64,000 nucleotides of DNA, from assembly GCF_058153355.1 (NCBI RefSeq), contig NZ_CM177019.1, one strand, 5' to 3'. The notes beneath the pieces are model-generated. The model did no database searches. It was given only the letters and a program-made list of their open reading frames with translations, and was not told the DNA's origin. A program made the position numbers and the translations under genes. Each line of letters opens with the position of its first letter. The first letter of the stretch is position 1. This document shows positions 11,631-64,000 of this stretch, in pieces.

Positions 11631-11900
<270 letters not shown>

Positions 11901-26107: not shown

Positions 26108-27215
26108 CGCAGGAACTTATAAGCTTGAGAGTTACCGTTCTACGATGAGGACCGAATCCTTATATAAAAACATAGGTAACTCTCATGCTTCATATCCGCA
26201 GTCCCGCCATCAAACTTTAAGCCGATTCGCTCAATCTGGCGGATGATGGTGCTATGGATACACTGATAAACCACAAGTGTAATGCCACTCAGCTTAAGAA
26301 TCACGCAACCAGTGCTCCTGGCCAGGGTTACTTGTTCTTTCCCACTCCCGGTTAGCAGTGGTCAGCGATCAACTGCGTAAGCCGGGCGTATTTATCCCAA
26401 AGCGTGGAGTAATATCAGGTCTACGCTAAAAAACTCAATTTATTCGGTTATCATGCACGCAAAGGGGGCTTGTGGCGAGTATAAAAATAAGTCAGACCCA
26501 AAAACTACGTGGAGCTTTAAACACGGTTCGTATAATTTATTAGCAGCGATTTATTTCTACCCTTCTTTAATCAGTCATCATGATTAAATATTTTTTATCA
26601 CAAGATTATCGCTTCTCTAACATTTTATTTTTTATTTATTATCAATTGATAAGAAAAAATTGTTAGTACGTTTTTGCAAAAAATTAAAAGTGTTGGAATA
26701 CACTTAAACAAATGAACAAAAACCAAACAAACTGAGATTTGCAATCAGAAAAAATTATTCAAGAGAACATCTCTAATTTATTGGTAGCGTCCATGAACGA
26801 TGATTTCCTCACAACCAAAAAGTAAAGAAAATCTTATGATAAGATATATTTGTAAATTAGTATTATTAACGTCAAAGATCTTTTCTTTTCTGCACCCTTA
26901 CTTTGCAACGCATAAAAAACAAATAAAATCAATAATATATGCAGAAAAAGTTATTTTACGTAAAAATAACATTAAATAAATCAAGACTATTGAACATCAC
27001 TAAAACATTAGACGTAATACACATTCACCCCCGCTCCTTGACTCAGGGTTTTAATATTTTTTGTTTCACATCATTGTAGAAAAAATCGCGCATTAAAAAT
27101 GAGTTGTAGAAAAACCGCACAATAAATATTTCATATTTTATCTATTGCGTAGAACTACTATTCAAAAAATCTTATTAATGAGATAATGAAATTACATCGA
27201 TAACGTTCTGATTGC

Positions 27216-27248
27216 AGGCACACTTATCTGGGTGTGCCTCTTTTTTTT
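27216..27248 (+). terminator. Intrinsic-terminator-like hairpin plus T-run about 20 bp upstream of the recombinase start codon
   Basis: aggcacac-ttatctgg-gtgtgcct followed by c and eight T (27241-27248); plus-strand orientation, ending 20 nt before the ATG at 27269. Confidence 0.5.
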
Positions 27249-27268
27249 ACAACTGTACACGGTGGCGT

Positions 27269-27889
27269 ATGACGAGAAAATATCTCACACAGGATGAAGT
27301 CTACAGGCTGATGGATGCAGCCCAGAGCATGTCCTTTCCTGAAAGAAATCGCTGTCTAATTATGATGGCTTTCATTCACGGTTTTAGGGCCAGTGAACTT
27401 CTTGATTTACATTTATCCGATATTGATGCATCAGGAAAACAACTTAATATTCGGCGTATTAAAAATGGTTTCTCGACAACACATCCTCTTCTTCCTGATG
27501 AATATAATTTGATCAAGTTGTGGCTTAAGCAGAGGAAGTTAATTGAAAATGGAGTTGAAGGAGACAGGCTTTTTCTCTCCCGGAAACGCCGCCCTATCAG
27601 CAGACAACATTTTTTTTCGATCATTCGTGAGGCAGGAAGACGTGCAGGATTAGCTGTAAAAGCACATCCTCATATGTTACGTCATGCCTGTGGATTTGCT
27701 CTGGCTGACAATGGTGTCGATACCCGACTACTTCAGGATTATCTGGGTCATCGAAATATTCAGCATACTGTCAGATACACAGCCAGTAATGCTGCTCGAT
27801 TTAAAGGGGTGTGGAAAAAAAGCCTCGTTAAAACAGTACCTTCTGATTCAAAATGTCAGATTCCTACGTTTGCCTCAATTCTTCCATAA
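27269..27889 (+). CDS. ipuA: FimB/FimE-family tyrosine site-specific recombinase (IpuA-like)
   Basis: 206 aa from MTRKYLT; aligns along its length with FimE as I recall it (CLIMMAFIHGFRASELLDLH, HPHMLRHACGFALA, catalytic Tyr region GHRNIQHTVRYTASNA). The last 15 codons lie inside the adjacent inverted-repeat switch. Confidence 0.8.
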   Translation: MTRKYLTQDEVYRLMDAAQSMSFPERNRCLIMMAFIHGFRASELLDLHLSDIDASGKQLNIRRIKNGFSTTHPLLPDEYNLIKLWLKQRKLIENGVEGDRLFLSRKRRPISRQHFFSIIREAGRRAGLAVKAHPHMLRHACGFALADNGVDTRLLQDYLGHRNIQHTVRYTASNAARFKGVWKKSLVKTVPSDSKCQIPTFASILP

Positions 27890-28121
27890 AAAAACAGCCC
27901 ATTCAATTAAATAAAACACATAACATGTTGATATTTCTCGCTAAAGTAAAATAACCCCATGATTTGAAATGATTAACCATAAAGGTCATACCAGTGGTTA
28001 ACTTTCACCCACTCTGTTAAATAACACAAAATTAAAAACAATAAAAGTAATAAAAATTAGATTTATATTCCAAGAAAATTAAATATTCAGGTAATTAAAC
28101 CAAACCTGACATTTTGAATCA
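27844..28121. promoter_or_regulatory. Invertible DNA switch (ipuS-like) bounded by 16-bp perfect inverted repeats
   Basis: tgattcaaaatgtcag at 27844-27859 and its exact reverse complement ctgacattttgaatca at 28106-28121, enclosing about 246 bp of AT-rich DNA between a fim-type recombinase gene and a LuxR-type regulator gene. Confidence 0.7.
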
Positions 28122-28160
28122 AAATGTCAGGTTTTGTAGCAATGGCGTGGACGAGTCTGA

Positions 28161-28955
28161 ATGAAGAAGCCTCTGGTTATTATCAGTGCCTGTCAGTTCA
28201 CCAGGCTGGCACTGGAGTCTCTCATCCCAACGGACAGGTATCTCGTGCGGGTGTACAGCAACGTCACTACAGAGGTTGAATTCGTTTTAAAGACCTCCTG
28301 TGGCTACCTGTTAGCTGATATCCCTTCGCTTCCTTCAGGGGAGTTGGTTCTTCTGGCTTGTCTTGTCCGCTTGCGGAGTGATGCCGGGCAATGGCAGGTC
28401 TGCCTGACCGGTGACTCCAACTGGTTCGATAATGCTCCTGTTGCAAGTCTGTACTACGGCTTCCCACGCATAAGCACCCTGCTGACAGCGAGTCGTTATC
28501 AGAATCAAATTATCCGCTGGTTACTACGTCCTTTGCCCGGCGATATGAGCGATTTCTGGCTCCTGACTGCACGGGAGTTGAGCGTGCTTAAGATTCTGAT
28601 GCAGGGCATGAGTTTCAGTGAGATTGCCCGTTATGAACAACGCAGTTCAAAGACCCTGCATGCGATTGCCACACGGGCATTAATGAAACTTGGACTGGGA
28701 ACTCTGAGCGATTTCAGGCTGCTCTATACGGGATGCGGTGACAGCAGAGTGAAACGGAATATACGGCTACATGCAAGATATGTCGGACAACATTCCGCTC
28801 ATCGACTCACTCAGTATGTGCAGAACATGGTATCCGGAATTCTTTATCCAGAGAAAGTTGCCGTTGGTGAATCAATAAATTCTGACGCCATATCCGGAAA
28901 AGTACTTTCCGGACTAAGAAAAAATATGCCTAAAAAAAGACCAGGTTTGTTATGA
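28161..28955 (+). CDS. ipuR: LuxR-family transcriptional regulator (IpuR-like)
   Basis: 264 aa with C-terminal LuxR HTH (LTARELSVLKILMQGMSFSEIARYEQRSSKTLHAIATRALMKLGL); immediately downstream of the switch. Confidence 0.7.
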   Translation: MKKPLVIISACQFTRLALESLIPTDRYLVRVYSNVTTEVEFVLKTSCGYLLADIPSLPSGELVLLACLVRLRSDAGQWQVCLTGDSNWFDNAPVASLYYGFPRISTLLTASRYQNQIIRWLLRPLPGDMSDFWLLTARELSVLKILMQGMSFSEIARYEQRSSKTLHAIATRALMKLGLGTLSDFRLLYTGCGDSRVKRNIRLHARYVGQHSAHRLTQYVQNMVSGILYPEKVAVGESINSDAISGKVLSGLRKNMPKKRPGLL

Positions 28956-29108
28956 CACAGCAGCGTTGTTACTACCCCCCACTGCGGCGCATACGGACTC
29001 GCTACAGTGTAGGAGCCAAAATATTTCTACTGCTCTGGGCTGCAGGATTGGGAGGCACGCTGTACAGCCTGTACAGCGTGCTGGCGTACTGACATCTGTG
29101 AGGGAAGG

Positions 29109-29870
29109 ATGCGTTTCGTTCTTTTCTGTCCCTCAGGAATTGTACCAGCGCAGTTCGCAGCTCTATCAACCGGTTCTGTCGGCAATGTTACCTGCATTGG
29201 AACAGAAGAGGAGTTACGCAATAAATTGCGGCACAGGCCACAGAGTGTCGTGATATCGGCAGGGCGACCTGCCGAATGCGCTGAAATGTGGTTCCGATTT
29301 TATCGGGATCACTCATTCGTGGTGGTGTTGTGCGTCGCGCCCTTTTTTCTGCCACCGGATGTGAGTATTTCTGGCGTTCTCAAAAACCTGAGGTTACTGA
29401 AACCAGGAATGTCAGTAGAGCATGTCATCAGTATTGCAAATGCCTCTGGTGGGTTTTCAGGGCTGAAACATGCAGAAATTTTGCCAGTTATGGACAGTTA
29501 CTCTGTCTTTATGAAAGAGGTGAATAACCGCACAAAGACAATCGTCATGTCAGAACGCTTCCCGGAAAAGCAAAAGAAGGTGTTGTCGTTGCTTCTTGCC
29601 GGACACAGCTGGGAATACAGTGCGCAGTTTCTCAAAACGGGGATAAGACAGATATGGCTTGCCGAGCAGTCGCTAAAAAAGCGTTGGGGAATACCGGACA
29701 GCATGTCATTGCGGGAAGCCCTGCTGCTGAGCAGCAATAAATTTCACGGTGATGGAAATGCATTGGAAGAAACGAATGCCATGACATTGCGTGAAAACGG
29801 AAATACCAACAGGTATTCCGTGGTGGTAAATGCAGGGACGCAGGCTTTATCTCTGCATAAATATAAATAA
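29109..29870 (+). CDS. Putative second regulator with a degenerate LuxR-like C-terminal HTH
   Basis: 253-aa ORF; segment EKQKKVLSLLLAGHSWEYSAQFLKTGIRQIWLAEQSLKKRWG resembles a LuxR-type HTH; true start codon uncertain. Confidence 0.5.
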   Translation: MRFVLFCPSGIVPAQFAALSTGSVGNVTCIGTEEELRNKLRHRPQSVVISAGRPAECAEMWFRFYRDHSFVVVLCVAPFFLPPDVSISGVLKNLRLLKPGMSVEHVISIANASGGFSGLKHAEILPVMDSYSVFMKEVNNRTKTIVMSERFPEKQKKVLSLLLAGHSWEYSAQFLKTGIRQIWLAEQSLKKRWGIPDSMSLREALLLSSNKFHGDGNALEETNAMTLRENGNTNRYSVVVNAGTQALSLHKYK

Positions 29871-29911: not shown

Positions 29912-32209
29912 ATGAAAAACAGTAAGGCATTTTACCGCAGCGCATTAGCGACAGCTATTGTTATGGCTCTTTCTGCACCAGCATTCGCTGCTGATAACGC
30001 GGTATCAACTACACCGGTTAAGTTGGATAAAAATAAGACGATTCTGGATCAAGATGTTGTTATTAACGGTGATAACAAGATTACAGCCGTAACAATTGAA
30101 ACGTCAAATTCAGATAAAGATCTTAATGTTACTTTTGGCGGTCACGATATTACCGCCGCATCAACGGTAGACCAAGGTTTCGTTGAAGGTGTAAAAGTTA
30201 GCGGTGACAAAAATGTTGTGATTAATGCTACAGGCTCCACCATCACAGCTCAAGGCGAAGGCACCTATGTCCGGACTGCAATGGTCATTTCTTCTACTGG
30301 CGATGTTGTTGTTAATGGCGGTAATTTCGTTGCAAAAAATGAAAAAGGTAGTGCGACAGGGATATCTCTGGAAGGGGCCACGGGAAATAATGTCACGCTC
30401 AATGGCACAACCATAAACGCTCAAGGTAATAAGAGTTCCAGCAACGGCTCTACGGCAATTTTTGCTCAAAAGGGTAGCGTATCGAATGGTTTTAACGGTG
30501 ATGCAACCGACAACATTACCCTTGCTGGCTCAAACATTATTAATGGTCGGATTGAAACAATAGTTACTGCCGGGAATAAGACGGGAATTCATACAGTCAA
30601 CCTGAATATTAAGGATGGCTCAGTAATTGGGGCGGCTAATAATAAACAAACAATTTATGCCTCTGCTTCGGCACAAGGCGCAGGTTCAGCAACGCAAAAT
30701 TTAAATTTGTCTGTTGCTGATTCAACCATCTACTCTGATGTCCTGGCCCTTTCTGCAAGCGAGAATTCAGCCGGTACCACAACAAATGTAAATATGAACG
30801 TTGCCCGCTCTTACTGGGAAGGTAATGCTTATACGCTCAATAGCGGCGATAAAGCGGGTAGTGATCTGGATATAAATCTTTCCGATAGTTCAGTCTGGAA
30901 AGGCAAAGTTTCAGGGGCAGGAGATGCCAACGTATCTCTGCAAAACGGGTCTGTCTGGAATGTTACGGGTTCCTCAACTGTTGATGCTCTGGCAGTAAAA
31001 GACAGTACGGTTAATATCACTAAGGCTACAGTCAATACTGGCACGTTTGCTTCTCAAAACGGCACTCTGATTGTTGATGCCTCTTCTGAAAACACTCTGG
31101 ATATCAGCGGTAAAGCGAGCGGTGACTTGCGTGTTTACAGTGCGGGTTCATTGGATCTTATCAATGAACAAACGGCATTTATTTCTACCGGCAAAGACAG
31201 CACTCTAAAAGCCACAGGCACAACGGAAGGTGGTCTGTATCAATATGACCTGACACAGGGAGCTGATGGTAACTTTTATTTCGTAAAAAACACGCATAAA
31301 GCATCCAACGCCAGCTCCGTGATTCAGGCAATGGCAGCTGCTCCGGCTAACGTCGCTAATCTGCAGGCTGACACGCTCTCCGCCCGTCAGGATGCTGTCC
31401 GTCTGAGCGAAAATGACGAGGGTGGCGTATGGATTCAGTACTTTGGCGGTAAACAGAAACATACCACCGCAGGAAATGCATCCTATGACCTGGATGTAAA
31501 CGGTGTAATGCTGGGTGGTGATACCCGCTTCATGACTGAAGATGGTAGCTGGCTGGCCGGTGTGGCGATGTCTTCTGCGAAAGGTGACATGACCACCATG
31601 CAGAGCAAAGGTGACACTGAAGGTTACAGCTTCCACGCTTACCTGAGCCGCCAGTATAACAACGGTATCTTCATTGATACTGCTGCACAGTTTGGTCATT
31701 ACAGCAACACGGCAGATGTTCGCCTGATGAATGGTGGCGGTACCATCAAAGCTGACTTTAACACCAATGGTTTCGGTGCGATGGTTAAAGGTGGTTACAC
31801 CTGGGAAGACGGTAATGGCCTGTTTATTCAGCCATATGCCAAACTGTCTGCTCTGACTCTGGAAGGTGTGGATTATCAGCTCAACGGCGTGGACGTTCAT
31901 TCTGACAGCTATAACTCTGTGCTGGGTGAGGCCGGTACGCGCGTGGGTTATGACTTCGCTGTGGGCAACGCGACCGTTAAACCTTATTTAAATCTGGCCG
32001 CACTGAACGAATTCTCTGATGGCAACAAAGTCCGTCTGAGTGATGAGTCTGTCAATGCCAGCATTGACGGTGCAGCATTCCGCGTGGGTGCAGGTGTACA
32101 GGCTGATATCACCAAAAACATGGGAGCATATGCAAGCCTTGACTACACCAAAGGTGACGACATTGAGAACCCGCTACAGGGTGTAGTTGGTATCAATGTG
32201 ACCTGGTAA
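29912..32209 (+). CDS. upaE: Autotransporter adhesin (type Va secretion; UpaE-like)
   Basis: Signal peptide (MKNSKAFYRSALATAIVMALSAPAFAADN), Thr/Ser/Asn-rich repetitive passenger, C-terminal beta-barrel translocator ending ..GVVGINVTW. The symbol is assigned from locus context. Confidence 0.7.
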   Translation: MKNSKAFYRSALATAIVMALSAPAFAADNAVSTTPVKLDKNKTILDQDVVINGDNKITAVTIETSNSDKDLNVTFGGHDITAASTVDQGFVEGVKVSGDKNVVINATGSTITAQGEGTYVRTAMVISSTGDVVVNGGNFVAKNEKGSATGISLEGATGNNVTLNGTTINAQGNKSSSNGSTAIFAQKGSVSNGFNGDATDNITLAGSNIINGRIETIVTAGNKTGIHTVNLNIKDGSVIGAANNKQTIYASASAQGAGSATQNLNLSVADSTIYSDVLALSASENSAGTTTNVNMNVARSYWEGNAYTLNSGDKAGSDLDINLSDSSVWKGKVSGAGDANVSLQNGSVWNVTGSSTVDALAVKDSTVNITKATVNTGTFASQNGTLIVDASSENTLDISGKASGDLRVYSAGSLDLINEQTAFISTGKDSTLKATGTTEGGLYQYDLTQGADGNFYFVKNTHKASNASSVIQAMAAAPANVANLQADTLSARQDAVRLSENDEGGVWIQYFGGKQKHTTAGNASYDLDVNGVMLGGDTRFMTEDGSWLAGVAMSSAKGDMTTMQSKGDTEGYSFHAYLSRQYNNGIFIDTAAQFGHYSNTADVRLMNGGGTIKADFNTNGFGAMVKGGYTWEDGNGLFIQPYAKLSALTLEGVDYQLNGVDVHSDSYNSVLGEAGTRVGYDFAVGNATVKPYLNLAALNEFSDGNKVRLSDESVNASIDGAAFRVGAGVQADITKNMGAYASLDYTKGDDIENPLQGVVGINVTW

Positions 32210-63300: not shown

Positions 63301-63334
63301 GCCCCGCCAACTGTAATAGCGGGGCTTCATTTTT
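63301..63334 (+). terminator. Intrinsic terminator after ykgJ
   Basis: Stem gccccgc / gcggggc with an 11-nt loop followed by ttcattttt, 23 bp after the stop. Confidence 0.5.
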
Positions 63335-63488
63335 CAGGGACAACAAAAACCGATTCGTCTTCCATTTTCCAGCAACAATGCCTCTTCTTCTGTAGCGTTC
63401 TCCGGATCTACATCATCTTGAAGTAGCGCGATATGATCTCTGGCTTTCTGCATCAGAATATAAAAGCACGTTTTTATCATTCAATGCA

Positions 63489-64000
63489 TTATCTATTTGA
63501 GCCTAAAGGGATCTCAGGGTCTGGCTCATGGGTAATTCTGTTTCGTAAATCTCTGCGAATAATTTCAATAGACCAGAACCAGACTAAATGTCCAAAAATT
63601 TCAGAGACATTCTCATACCACGGAAGATCAAAGAGAGGTGGCGTAAGTCCCATGAGAGGGAATGAAATCATATGAACAAAAAGTTGTGCTAAAGCACCTG
63701 CCAGTAAGCCCTGCCAGAGTTTAATTTTTGGAAATACTTCAGCGACCACACAATAACCGACAGCAAACACTATCGAAAAGATAATGTGCGTAACACCAAC
63801 CCAGTTAAAGACATGCCCGGCAAAGGTATAAACAGCCGCATTGGGATCTGTCAGCCCCAGCCAGTCTCGAAGAAAAATATACGGAGGATTGAGAAAATTA
63901 CGGGAGCAATCAATTTGCCCAGCAGCCCTGATTAATGATTCCGGGCCACACGCTGCATTAAACATATCCACCGGGCTACGTGGCGGCAATGGAACTTCAG
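63489..64000 (-). CDS. yagU: Inner-membrane DUF1440 protein YagU (5' end beyond window)
   Basis: ORF runs to the window edge; hydrophobic helices; the N-terminus appears to lie beyond position 64000. Confidence 0.7.

Follow-up and report, generated by a model that had tools for sequence, protein, structure and literature searches.

Organization and identity of the locus

Here we analyse a DNA inversion switch, together with its recombinase and the genes that follow it, in a stretch of 64,000 nucleotides from contig NZ_CM177019.1 of NCBI RefSeq assembly GCF_058153355.1 (termed the window, and numbered from its first letter throughout). The recombinase gene fimX, also named ipbA or hbiF (27269..27889, plus strand), encodes a tyrosine-type DNA invertase and is present here as a 206-residue frameshifted open reading frame (ORF) that reads through the left repeat of the switch. 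It is followed by an invertible segment of 246 bp (27860..28105) and by three plus-strand ORFs named after the annotation of their orthologues: hyxR (28161..28955; RefSeq), encoding a LuxR-family regulator under control of the switch, hyxA (29109..29870) and hyxB (29912..32209), an autotransporter gene with a TIGR01414 beta-barrel domain that is identical to upaB (PMC3789825). The element is hyxS, an already described phase switch of the pathogenicity island PAI-X that adjoins the FimX recombinase, and in addition to inverting it has been removed from many genomes by one precise 271-bp deletion. To our explanation as a whole, comprising the hyxS identity, inversion by FimX, the layout of the recombination sites, the orientation, the deletion and the altered tail of fimX, we assign a probability of roughly 0.88; the agent of the deletion is graded on its own below.

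Comparisons were made against 5,426 complete Escherichia coli genomes (20,395 records), in which about 1,900 records match the region and about 1,890 carry the locus. The gene order betT-betI-betB-betA, ipbA, hyxR, hyxA, hyxB, ykgH is annotated in APEC O2-211, CFT073 and 2012C-4502, and E. coli orthologues of the window recombinase are annotated as ipbA, 'also known as HbiF and FimX', with hyxR beside them. We identify the element as hyxS because this synteny from betA to ykgH, the 16-bp inverted repeats and a recombinase of the FimB/FimE subfamily all agree with the published switch of PAI-X, an island made up of fimX and hyxRAB (PMC3789825). The switch was described by Bateman and Seed (2012), as cited in PMC6083910, PMC6458436 and PMC3789825. 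CFT073 carries three such switches, namely fimS with 9-bp repeats, which serves type 1 fimbriae, hyxS with 16-bp repeats beside fimX, and ipuS with 7-bp repeats (PMC6083910); its hyxS has the same orientation as that of the window and differs from it at 18 places over 246 bp.

The initial annotation had instead named the ipuA-ipuS-ipuR-upaE switch of uropathogenic E. coli, a reading that captures only the general design, in which a Fim-type recombinase and an invertible spacer of some 250 bp are combined with a LuxR-type regulator and an autotransporter, the recombinase ORF of the window overlapping one repeat as ipuA does. That identity has practically no chance of being correct. As described, ipuS spans 260 bp between ipuA and ipuR-upaE and has 7-bp repeats (PMC6083910), compared with 16-bp repeats around 246 bp here; the genes between betA and ykgH are ipbA, hyxR, hyxA and hyxB, with a single recombinase gene among them; hyxB corresponds to upaB rather than upaE; and the overlap between ORF and repeat stems from a rare frameshift. 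A database protein followed up as a possible route to ipuA (P0109) was rejected, as it belongs to a different locus adjoining tibC-like genes.

Relative to the published hyxS, the window carries a distinct allele, diverged by about 3% from all of the complete E. coli genomes, in which a frameshift takes fimX across the left repeat. The closest complete genome is 2012C-4502, and the best identity reached among the complete E. coli genomes is 96.9% over 24 kb (window 14000-38000), with gene order fully kept. Rather than typical E. coli, the source of the window is probably a divergent Escherichia lineage on the margin of that species.

Inverted repeats and orientation of the switch

The left inverted repeat (IRL; 27844..27859, TGATTCAAAATGTCAG) and the right inverted repeat (IRR; 28106..28121) are perfect reverse complements, so that the 16-bp repeats around 246 bp beside a FimB/FimE-type gene are present as originally reported. 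In 500 dinucleotide-preserving shuffles of positions 27000-29000, a perfect inverted repeat of 16 bp never arose and one of 15 bp was reached once. The product of fimX exceeds the curated cut-offs of two NCBIfam models of the FimB/FimE type, NF007370 (243 bits, cut-off 221) and NF007371 (237 bits, cut-off 222), with the match ending at residue 186, and PF00589 is assigned to all of its homologues.

FimX is known to invert hyxS and thereby to regulate hyxR (PMC6083910, PMC6458436, PMC3789825). Recombination between the two 16-bp repeats by FimX would invert the 246-bp segment, so that a promoter faces hyxR-hyxA-hyxB in one state and the 3' end of fimX in the other. Both orientations are found in public genomes, with breakpoints inside the repeats, which bears out the proposal that the element is an invertible switch. 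Searches with a native query of 1,101 bp, at least 80% covered and in one colinear place, recovered the window orientation in 1,779 records, and the same query inverted in silico recovered the opposite orientation in 16. The exchange is exact: APEC O2-211, which has the window orientation, becomes identical to GPEC1035 when inverted in silico between the repeats (0 mismatches in 1,478 positions), and the IpbA and HyxR proteins of the two strains are identical.

Six of the 16 inverted genomes form one lineage of 93% identity, isolated from dogs and humans, mostly dogs. In two of its members, 2018-10-2CC and RM14721, an IS66-family insertion sequence (ISEc8) has replaced fimX except for its last ~110 bp, and in all six fimX is annotated only as a 'DNA recombinase' remnant. 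Disruption of fimX by an insertion sequence would lock the switch, and these six genomes look like naturally locked examples; their common orientation within a single lineage agrees with such a state.

The window orientation, which is also that of the CFT073 reference and of the 1,779 records, is probably hyxR-OFF. The best promoter-like site found in a relaxed scan, TTGAAT-17-(TG)AAGAAT (27878..27906, minus strand; 9 points), faces fimX in this orientation and would face hyxR after inversion, with its end some 70 bp before the hyxR ATG, and its direction therefore points to an OFF state here.

A precise and recurrent 271-bp deletion

The right repeat forms part of a 33-bp palindrome (28102..28134, centre at 28118, arms of 16 + 1 + 16), which is real as initially annotated and extends to 19 + 1 + 19 at 95% complementarity. 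As a consequence of this symmetry, a third copy of the repeat, TGAATCAAAATGTCAG, stands in direct orientation to IRL with a single mismatch, which is the centre base of the palindrome; the copy occupies 28115..28130 rather than 28116-28131, where it had first been placed. The suggestion that this direct copy could support deletion of the switch has a counterpart in nature, in that 88 complete genomes carry an exact 271-bp deletion running from the left repeat to the third copy.

A first junction query, in which the left flank and left repeat were joined to the sequence following the third copy, matched many genomes as a single piece of 141 bp. With a strict query of 52 bp (E <= 1e-12), the deleted junction was found in 88 of the 5,426 genomes, always in one piece, which amounts to about 5% of locus-bearing genomes. 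In deleted alleles the end of ipbA lies 58 bp from the start of hyxR, as against 329 bp otherwise. Two types of junction occur, which differ in the base retained at the centre: the T-type CTTCTGATTCAAAATGTCAGG in 19 of the 88 genomes (18 exact matches and one with an unrelated single-nucleotide polymorphism, SNP) and the A-type CTTCTGAATCAAAATGTCAGG in the other 69, all exact. Removal of the 271 bp in silico from APEC O2-211 yields the sequence of both APEC E12049 and 13P477T (0 mismatches in 2,000 positions), and the same operation on CFT073 yields that of clone D i14 but for a single SNP and a 1-bp indel over 5.8 kb.

Alignment of ten deleted loci with MAFFT resolved at least seven flank haplotypes differing by 0.3-3%, with T-type junctions in five of them and A-type junctions in about four. 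Furthermore, Escherichia sp. MOD1-EC7003, which represents a separate species, has a FimX of 96% identity and was the sole locus returned by a protein-based scan of one genome per species, shows the deleted form, as does one metagenome contig. An origin of the deletion in assembly artefacts was considered and rejected, as the 88 genomes come from many laboratories and technologies and are joined by the metagenome contig. Together these data establish that the deletion is real, precise and recurrent in nature. Clone D i2/i14 is among the deleted genomes, as are sets of clonal isolates from poultry, the source of many of the deleted strains. Among assemblies the deleted form is commoner than the inverted orientation, as would be expected of an irreversible event.

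Could the empty state be ancestral, and the 271-bp segment a later insertion? The separate Escherichia species, whose representative shows only the empty state, would fit such a history. However, empty and occupied alleles match over 2 to 5.8 kb of flanking sequence in two different haplotypes (the APEC O2-211 and CFT073 comparisons above), the switch is also present in Salmonella and in paralogous systems, and the element diverges along with its flanks, all of which make late insertion very improbable and favour loss of the segment.

Some deleted loci show further change. In MOD1-EC7003 (L016:1100-1200) the junction is of the A-type and the remaining site is altered further (TGTCAT, GTTTAG). 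In FDAARGOS_943 (L005:3102-5700) PAI-X is decaying, with the switch deleted, fimX frameshifted, IS2 inserted in hyxR, and hyxA truncated and adjoining an IS600 remnant; FDAARGOS_944 has the same junction.

Proposed architecture of the recombination sites

In our model each boundary of the segment would be a tyrosine-recombinase core site, in which two binding arms flank a 7-bp centre. The left site would then read CAGTACCTTC / TGATTCA / AAATGTCAG and the right site CTGACATTT / TGAATCA / AAATGTCAG. IRL thus comprises the near-symmetric centre TGATTCA (27844-27850) and its inner arm (27851-27859), IRR comprises the right inner arm and the centre TGAATCA, and the palindrome would represent a full two-arm right site. 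The left outer arm (27834..27843) is unlike the other three.

We compared hyxS with two relatives, a paralogous E. coli switch whose FimX-like recombinase is 80% identical and the Salmonella T1-antigen switch (STM0716, 71% identical; PMC11294581). The left and right sites are, respectively, cagtaccttc-TGATTCA-aaatgtcag and ctgacattt-TGAATCA-aaatgtcag in hyxS, cagttcattc-TGGTTCA-aaatgtcag and ctgacattt-TGAACCA-ttatgtcag in the paralogue, and ccgtacgttc-TGATTCA-aaaagttaa and tttaccttt-TGAATCA-tattgttaa in Salmonella T1. In all three systems the right outer arm repeats the motif of the inner arms (TGTCAG in hyxS and the paralogue, GTTAA in Salmonella T1), and in all three the left outer arm retains GTWCNTTC. 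The asymmetry of the two boundaries noted in the initial annotation is accordingly real and conserved, and the right site is two-armed as had been suggested; the left site is not one-armed, having an outer arm that is divergent yet conserved. Such a pattern is what would be expected if a recombinase bound four arms, of which three are similar and one deviates, and it parallels the non-identical half-sites reported for fimS (PMC6458436).

The palindrome might alternatively be mainly regulatory, serving as an operator for a LuxR-type dimer such as HyxR, or as a bidirectional terminator or 5' untranslated region hairpin that insulates hyxR. The hyxR start follows it after 27 bp; as RNA it folds at about -20 kcal/mol on either strand (folding z-scores -5.5 and -6.2), inversion of the segment changing the value from -20 to -19 kcal/mol, and the hairpin is gone from deleted alleles; a terminator-like call falls on the minus strand; and its ends, ACCTG...CAGGT (28103-28133), resemble a lux box upstream of a LuxR-family gene. 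On the other hand, the outer arm follows the repeat arms in sequence, with TGTCAG in the E. coli systems and GTTAA in that of Salmonella, as if one protein bound all of them, and the ACC/GGT extension is absent from the 93% lineage and from the paralogue, so the likeness to a lux box may be coincidental. We consider a mainly regulatory role unlikely, while noting that regulatory and recombinase-site functions of the palindrome do not exclude each other. A 25-bp palindrome query returned no matches in a scan of one genome per species.

Origin of the deletion

The 7-bp centre is symmetric save for its middle base, and the right site would therefore be able to pair directly with the left site, aligning with it in either sense. 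Antiparallel alignment would lead to inversion, whereas parallel alignment would lead to excision of 271 bp, leaving one hybrid site with a mispaired centre base that replication or repair would then fix to T or to A, giving rise to the two junction types. Both junction bases do occur, each in several haplotypes, as resolution of a mispaired centre in either direction would give, and the A-type junction requires an exchange inside the 3 bp TGA. By the same reasoning deletion should be much less likely in the paralogous switch, the centre of which reads differently at three positions in the two senses.

The main rival to excision by FimX is RecA-independent replication slippage between the direct 16-bp copies, perhaps aided by the hairpin, after which mismatch repair would fix either centre base. 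The copies agree at 15 positions out of 16 and are only 271 bp apart, the palindrome folds strongly, and a 41-bp indel between 9-bp direct repeats in the paralogous switch indicates that slippage-type events occur in such spacers. Against slippage, the stretch of perfect homology measures 12 bp on the right side of the mismatch and only 3 bp on its left, yet A-type junctions, for which either an exchange inside these 3 bp or repair is required, account for 69 of the 88 deleted genomes and occur in at least four haplotypes; in addition, both end points fall precisely at a conserved two-arm site of the recombinase type. Weighing these points, we put the chance that FimX rather than slippage makes the deletion at about even, and regard slippage as a serious though somewhat less than even prospect. 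We tentatively propose, at a little under even odds, that hyxS has a built-in irreversible exit by which FimX occasionally excises its own switch, such that alleles lacking it recur, become fixed in lineages and place hyxRAB immediately after fimX.

Several points weigh against parts of this interpretation. The same pair of junctions could arise if replication slipped between the direct 16-bp copies and mismatch repair then acted, and we infer the link between FimX and the deletion from the arrangement of the sites. A genome-wide search for rearrangements after over-expression of FimX reported a signal at hyxS and mentioned no deletion there (PMC6458436), a result that speaks for slippage. The positions of cleavage, and hence the 7-bp overlap, are assumed in our model by analogy, guided by the symmetry of the centre and by the two types of junction. 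Furthermore, a strict promoter scan returned no promoter in the element in either orientation, and the site on which the ON/OFF assignment is based is a weak match.

A comparable deletion in the Salmonella T1 switch would speak for the recombinase, given the poor direct copy there. No deleted form of that switch was found among metagenomes (0 matches) or in 6 places (0 of 6), counts that have no usable denominator and are uninformative. In E. coli the candidate promoter is lost with the deletion, as is the hairpin of -20 kcal/mol, and hyxR would then presumably rely on read-through.

A rare frameshift in fimX

The initial annotation had noted that the left repeat is coding, read as D-S-K-C-Q, such that inversion would replace the recombinase tail. 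In the window this holds, and inversion in silico does yield the ending ..CQVWFNYLNI; the feature is, however, confined to a rare allele. Alignment to APEC O2-211 locates the cause in a run of seven adenines (A7; 27815..27821) where nearly all E. coli have eight (A8), and the missing base extends the ORF at its 3' end. The TAA at 27829..27831 (plus strand), at which the RefSeq coding sequences end, is the normal fimX stop in A8 alleles and lies 12 bp upstream of IRL; it is out of frame here. The A8 version encodes a protein of 187 residues ending in ..GVWKKKPR*, and the window FimX corrected in this manner is 98% identical to the E. coli clusters.

The exact A7 sequence occurs in only two of 1,891 records, and RefSeq flags both genes as frameshifted; the tail swap is therefore peculiar to a rare one-base deletion and not a property of the switch. 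A7 represents either a rare homopolymer deletion or a sequencing error. Should the allele be genuine, its enzyme may still work, as the conserved motifs lie upstream of the frameshift, including the stretch HTVRYTA, which we take to hold the catalytic tyrosine. Neither the 206-residue window FimX, nor its tail-swapped form, nor the A8-corrected form had an exact entry in a collection of 15 billion proteins. Database relatives of the same 206-residue length (P0013, P0017, P0021 and P0023) were considered as representatives of the same allele and rejected, as they result from earlier frameshifts in error-prone assemblies.

Other features of the window and of PAI-X

The spacer between betA and fimX (window 26108-27268) is 1.16 kb in length, very rich in A+T and without a convincing ORF, which is far longer than a fimX promoter would need; it contains two exact occurrences of TTGTAGAAAAA, 30 bp apart (27074 and 27104). 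Elsewhere, Rfam models scored above their gathering thresholds for two adjoining copies of naRNA4 (CssrE) on the plus strand (window 11681-11843) and for one IS009 RNA on the minus strand (window 63321-63516).

In the O157:H7 strain SS TX 313-1 (L032), the ipbA annotation reads frameshifted and incomplete, hyxR contains an internal stop, and other O157:H7 matches have no feature annotated under the match. PAI-X may be decaying in the O157:H7 lineage even though the repeats are retained.

Implications for PAI-X and phase variation

The regulator downstream of the switch affects nitrosative stress tolerance, survival in macrophages, O-antigen chain length and serum resistance (PMC3789825), and inversion at hyxR has been found in clones that were transiently resistant to phage (PMC12361893). 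Our findings indicate that roughly one locus in 20 is permanently without its switch through one precise recurring event, and therefore that many strains are fixed in one regulatory state. Studies that type PAI-X or examine its expression should treat the deleted form as a third state beside the two orientations.

Should the deletion be the work of FimX, hyxS would provide a natural case of a tyrosine-recombinase switch that both flips and excises by way of a near-symmetric crossover region, and its single centre base would offer a handle for testing how Fim-type recombinases choose between site alignments. How these recombinases recognize dissimilar repeats has been called an open question (PMC6458436). 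In the literature outside the two primary hyxS papers we found no description of recurrent excision, of the two junction types or of the four-arm layout. Since the switch itself is already known, these features extend a known system and define no new one, and we expect them to be of moderate interest to researchers in phase variation.

Comparison with known switches

The paralogous switch introduced above belongs to a second PAI-X-like island, found on the E. coli contigs ABZGDB010000033.1 (L019:3073-3325) and DANNPP010000026.1 (L020:3073-3366). Besides the FimX-like recombinase, 80% identical to FimX, it has a switch of its own with 23-nt repeats that are 91% complementary and centre on TGGTTCA, genes encoding 242 and 248 residues, and an autotransporter gene, and it adjoins genes for acetolactate decarboxylase and a thiamine pyrophosphate enzyme rather than betA. 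Between the two contigs the switch varies by an indel of 41 bp, which has 9-bp direct repeats on either side and a small palindrome inside.

Like ipuS, the switch of IpuA/IpuB, hyxS pairs a Fim-type recombinase with an invertible promoter, some 250 bp long, through which a LuxR-type regulator and an autotransporter are driven. In ipuS the distal repeat lies inside the recombinase ORF and inversion alters the C-terminus, whereas hyxS shows such an overlap only in the rare frameshifted allele; ipuS further differs in its 7-bp repeats, its length of 260 bp, its genes and its chromosomal site. The fimS switch, acted on by FimB and FimE, is likewise a promoter inverted by tyrosine recombinases, and AAATGT-like flanks adjoin its repeats too; it differs in having 9-bp repeats, a clearly asymmetric core (TTGGGGCCA) and a length of 314 bp, and no direct third copy.

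The Salmonella T1 switch is closer in several respects, with a recombinase 71% identical to FimX, the same centres TGATTCA and TGAATCA, a two-arm right site and a comparable left outer arm (GTACGTTC). It differs in having GTTAA as its arm motif in place of TGTCAG and a poor direct copy (12 matching positions out of 16), and in controlling a polysaccharide cluster. In the Cre and Flp systems, it is solely through an asymmetric overlap that lox and FRT sites acquire a relative orientation, and symmetric spacers permit both inversion and excision. Compared with such symmetric lox or FRT sites, hyxS keeps one asymmetric base at its centre, such that excision would leave a mispair, and excision appears to be much rarer than inversion.

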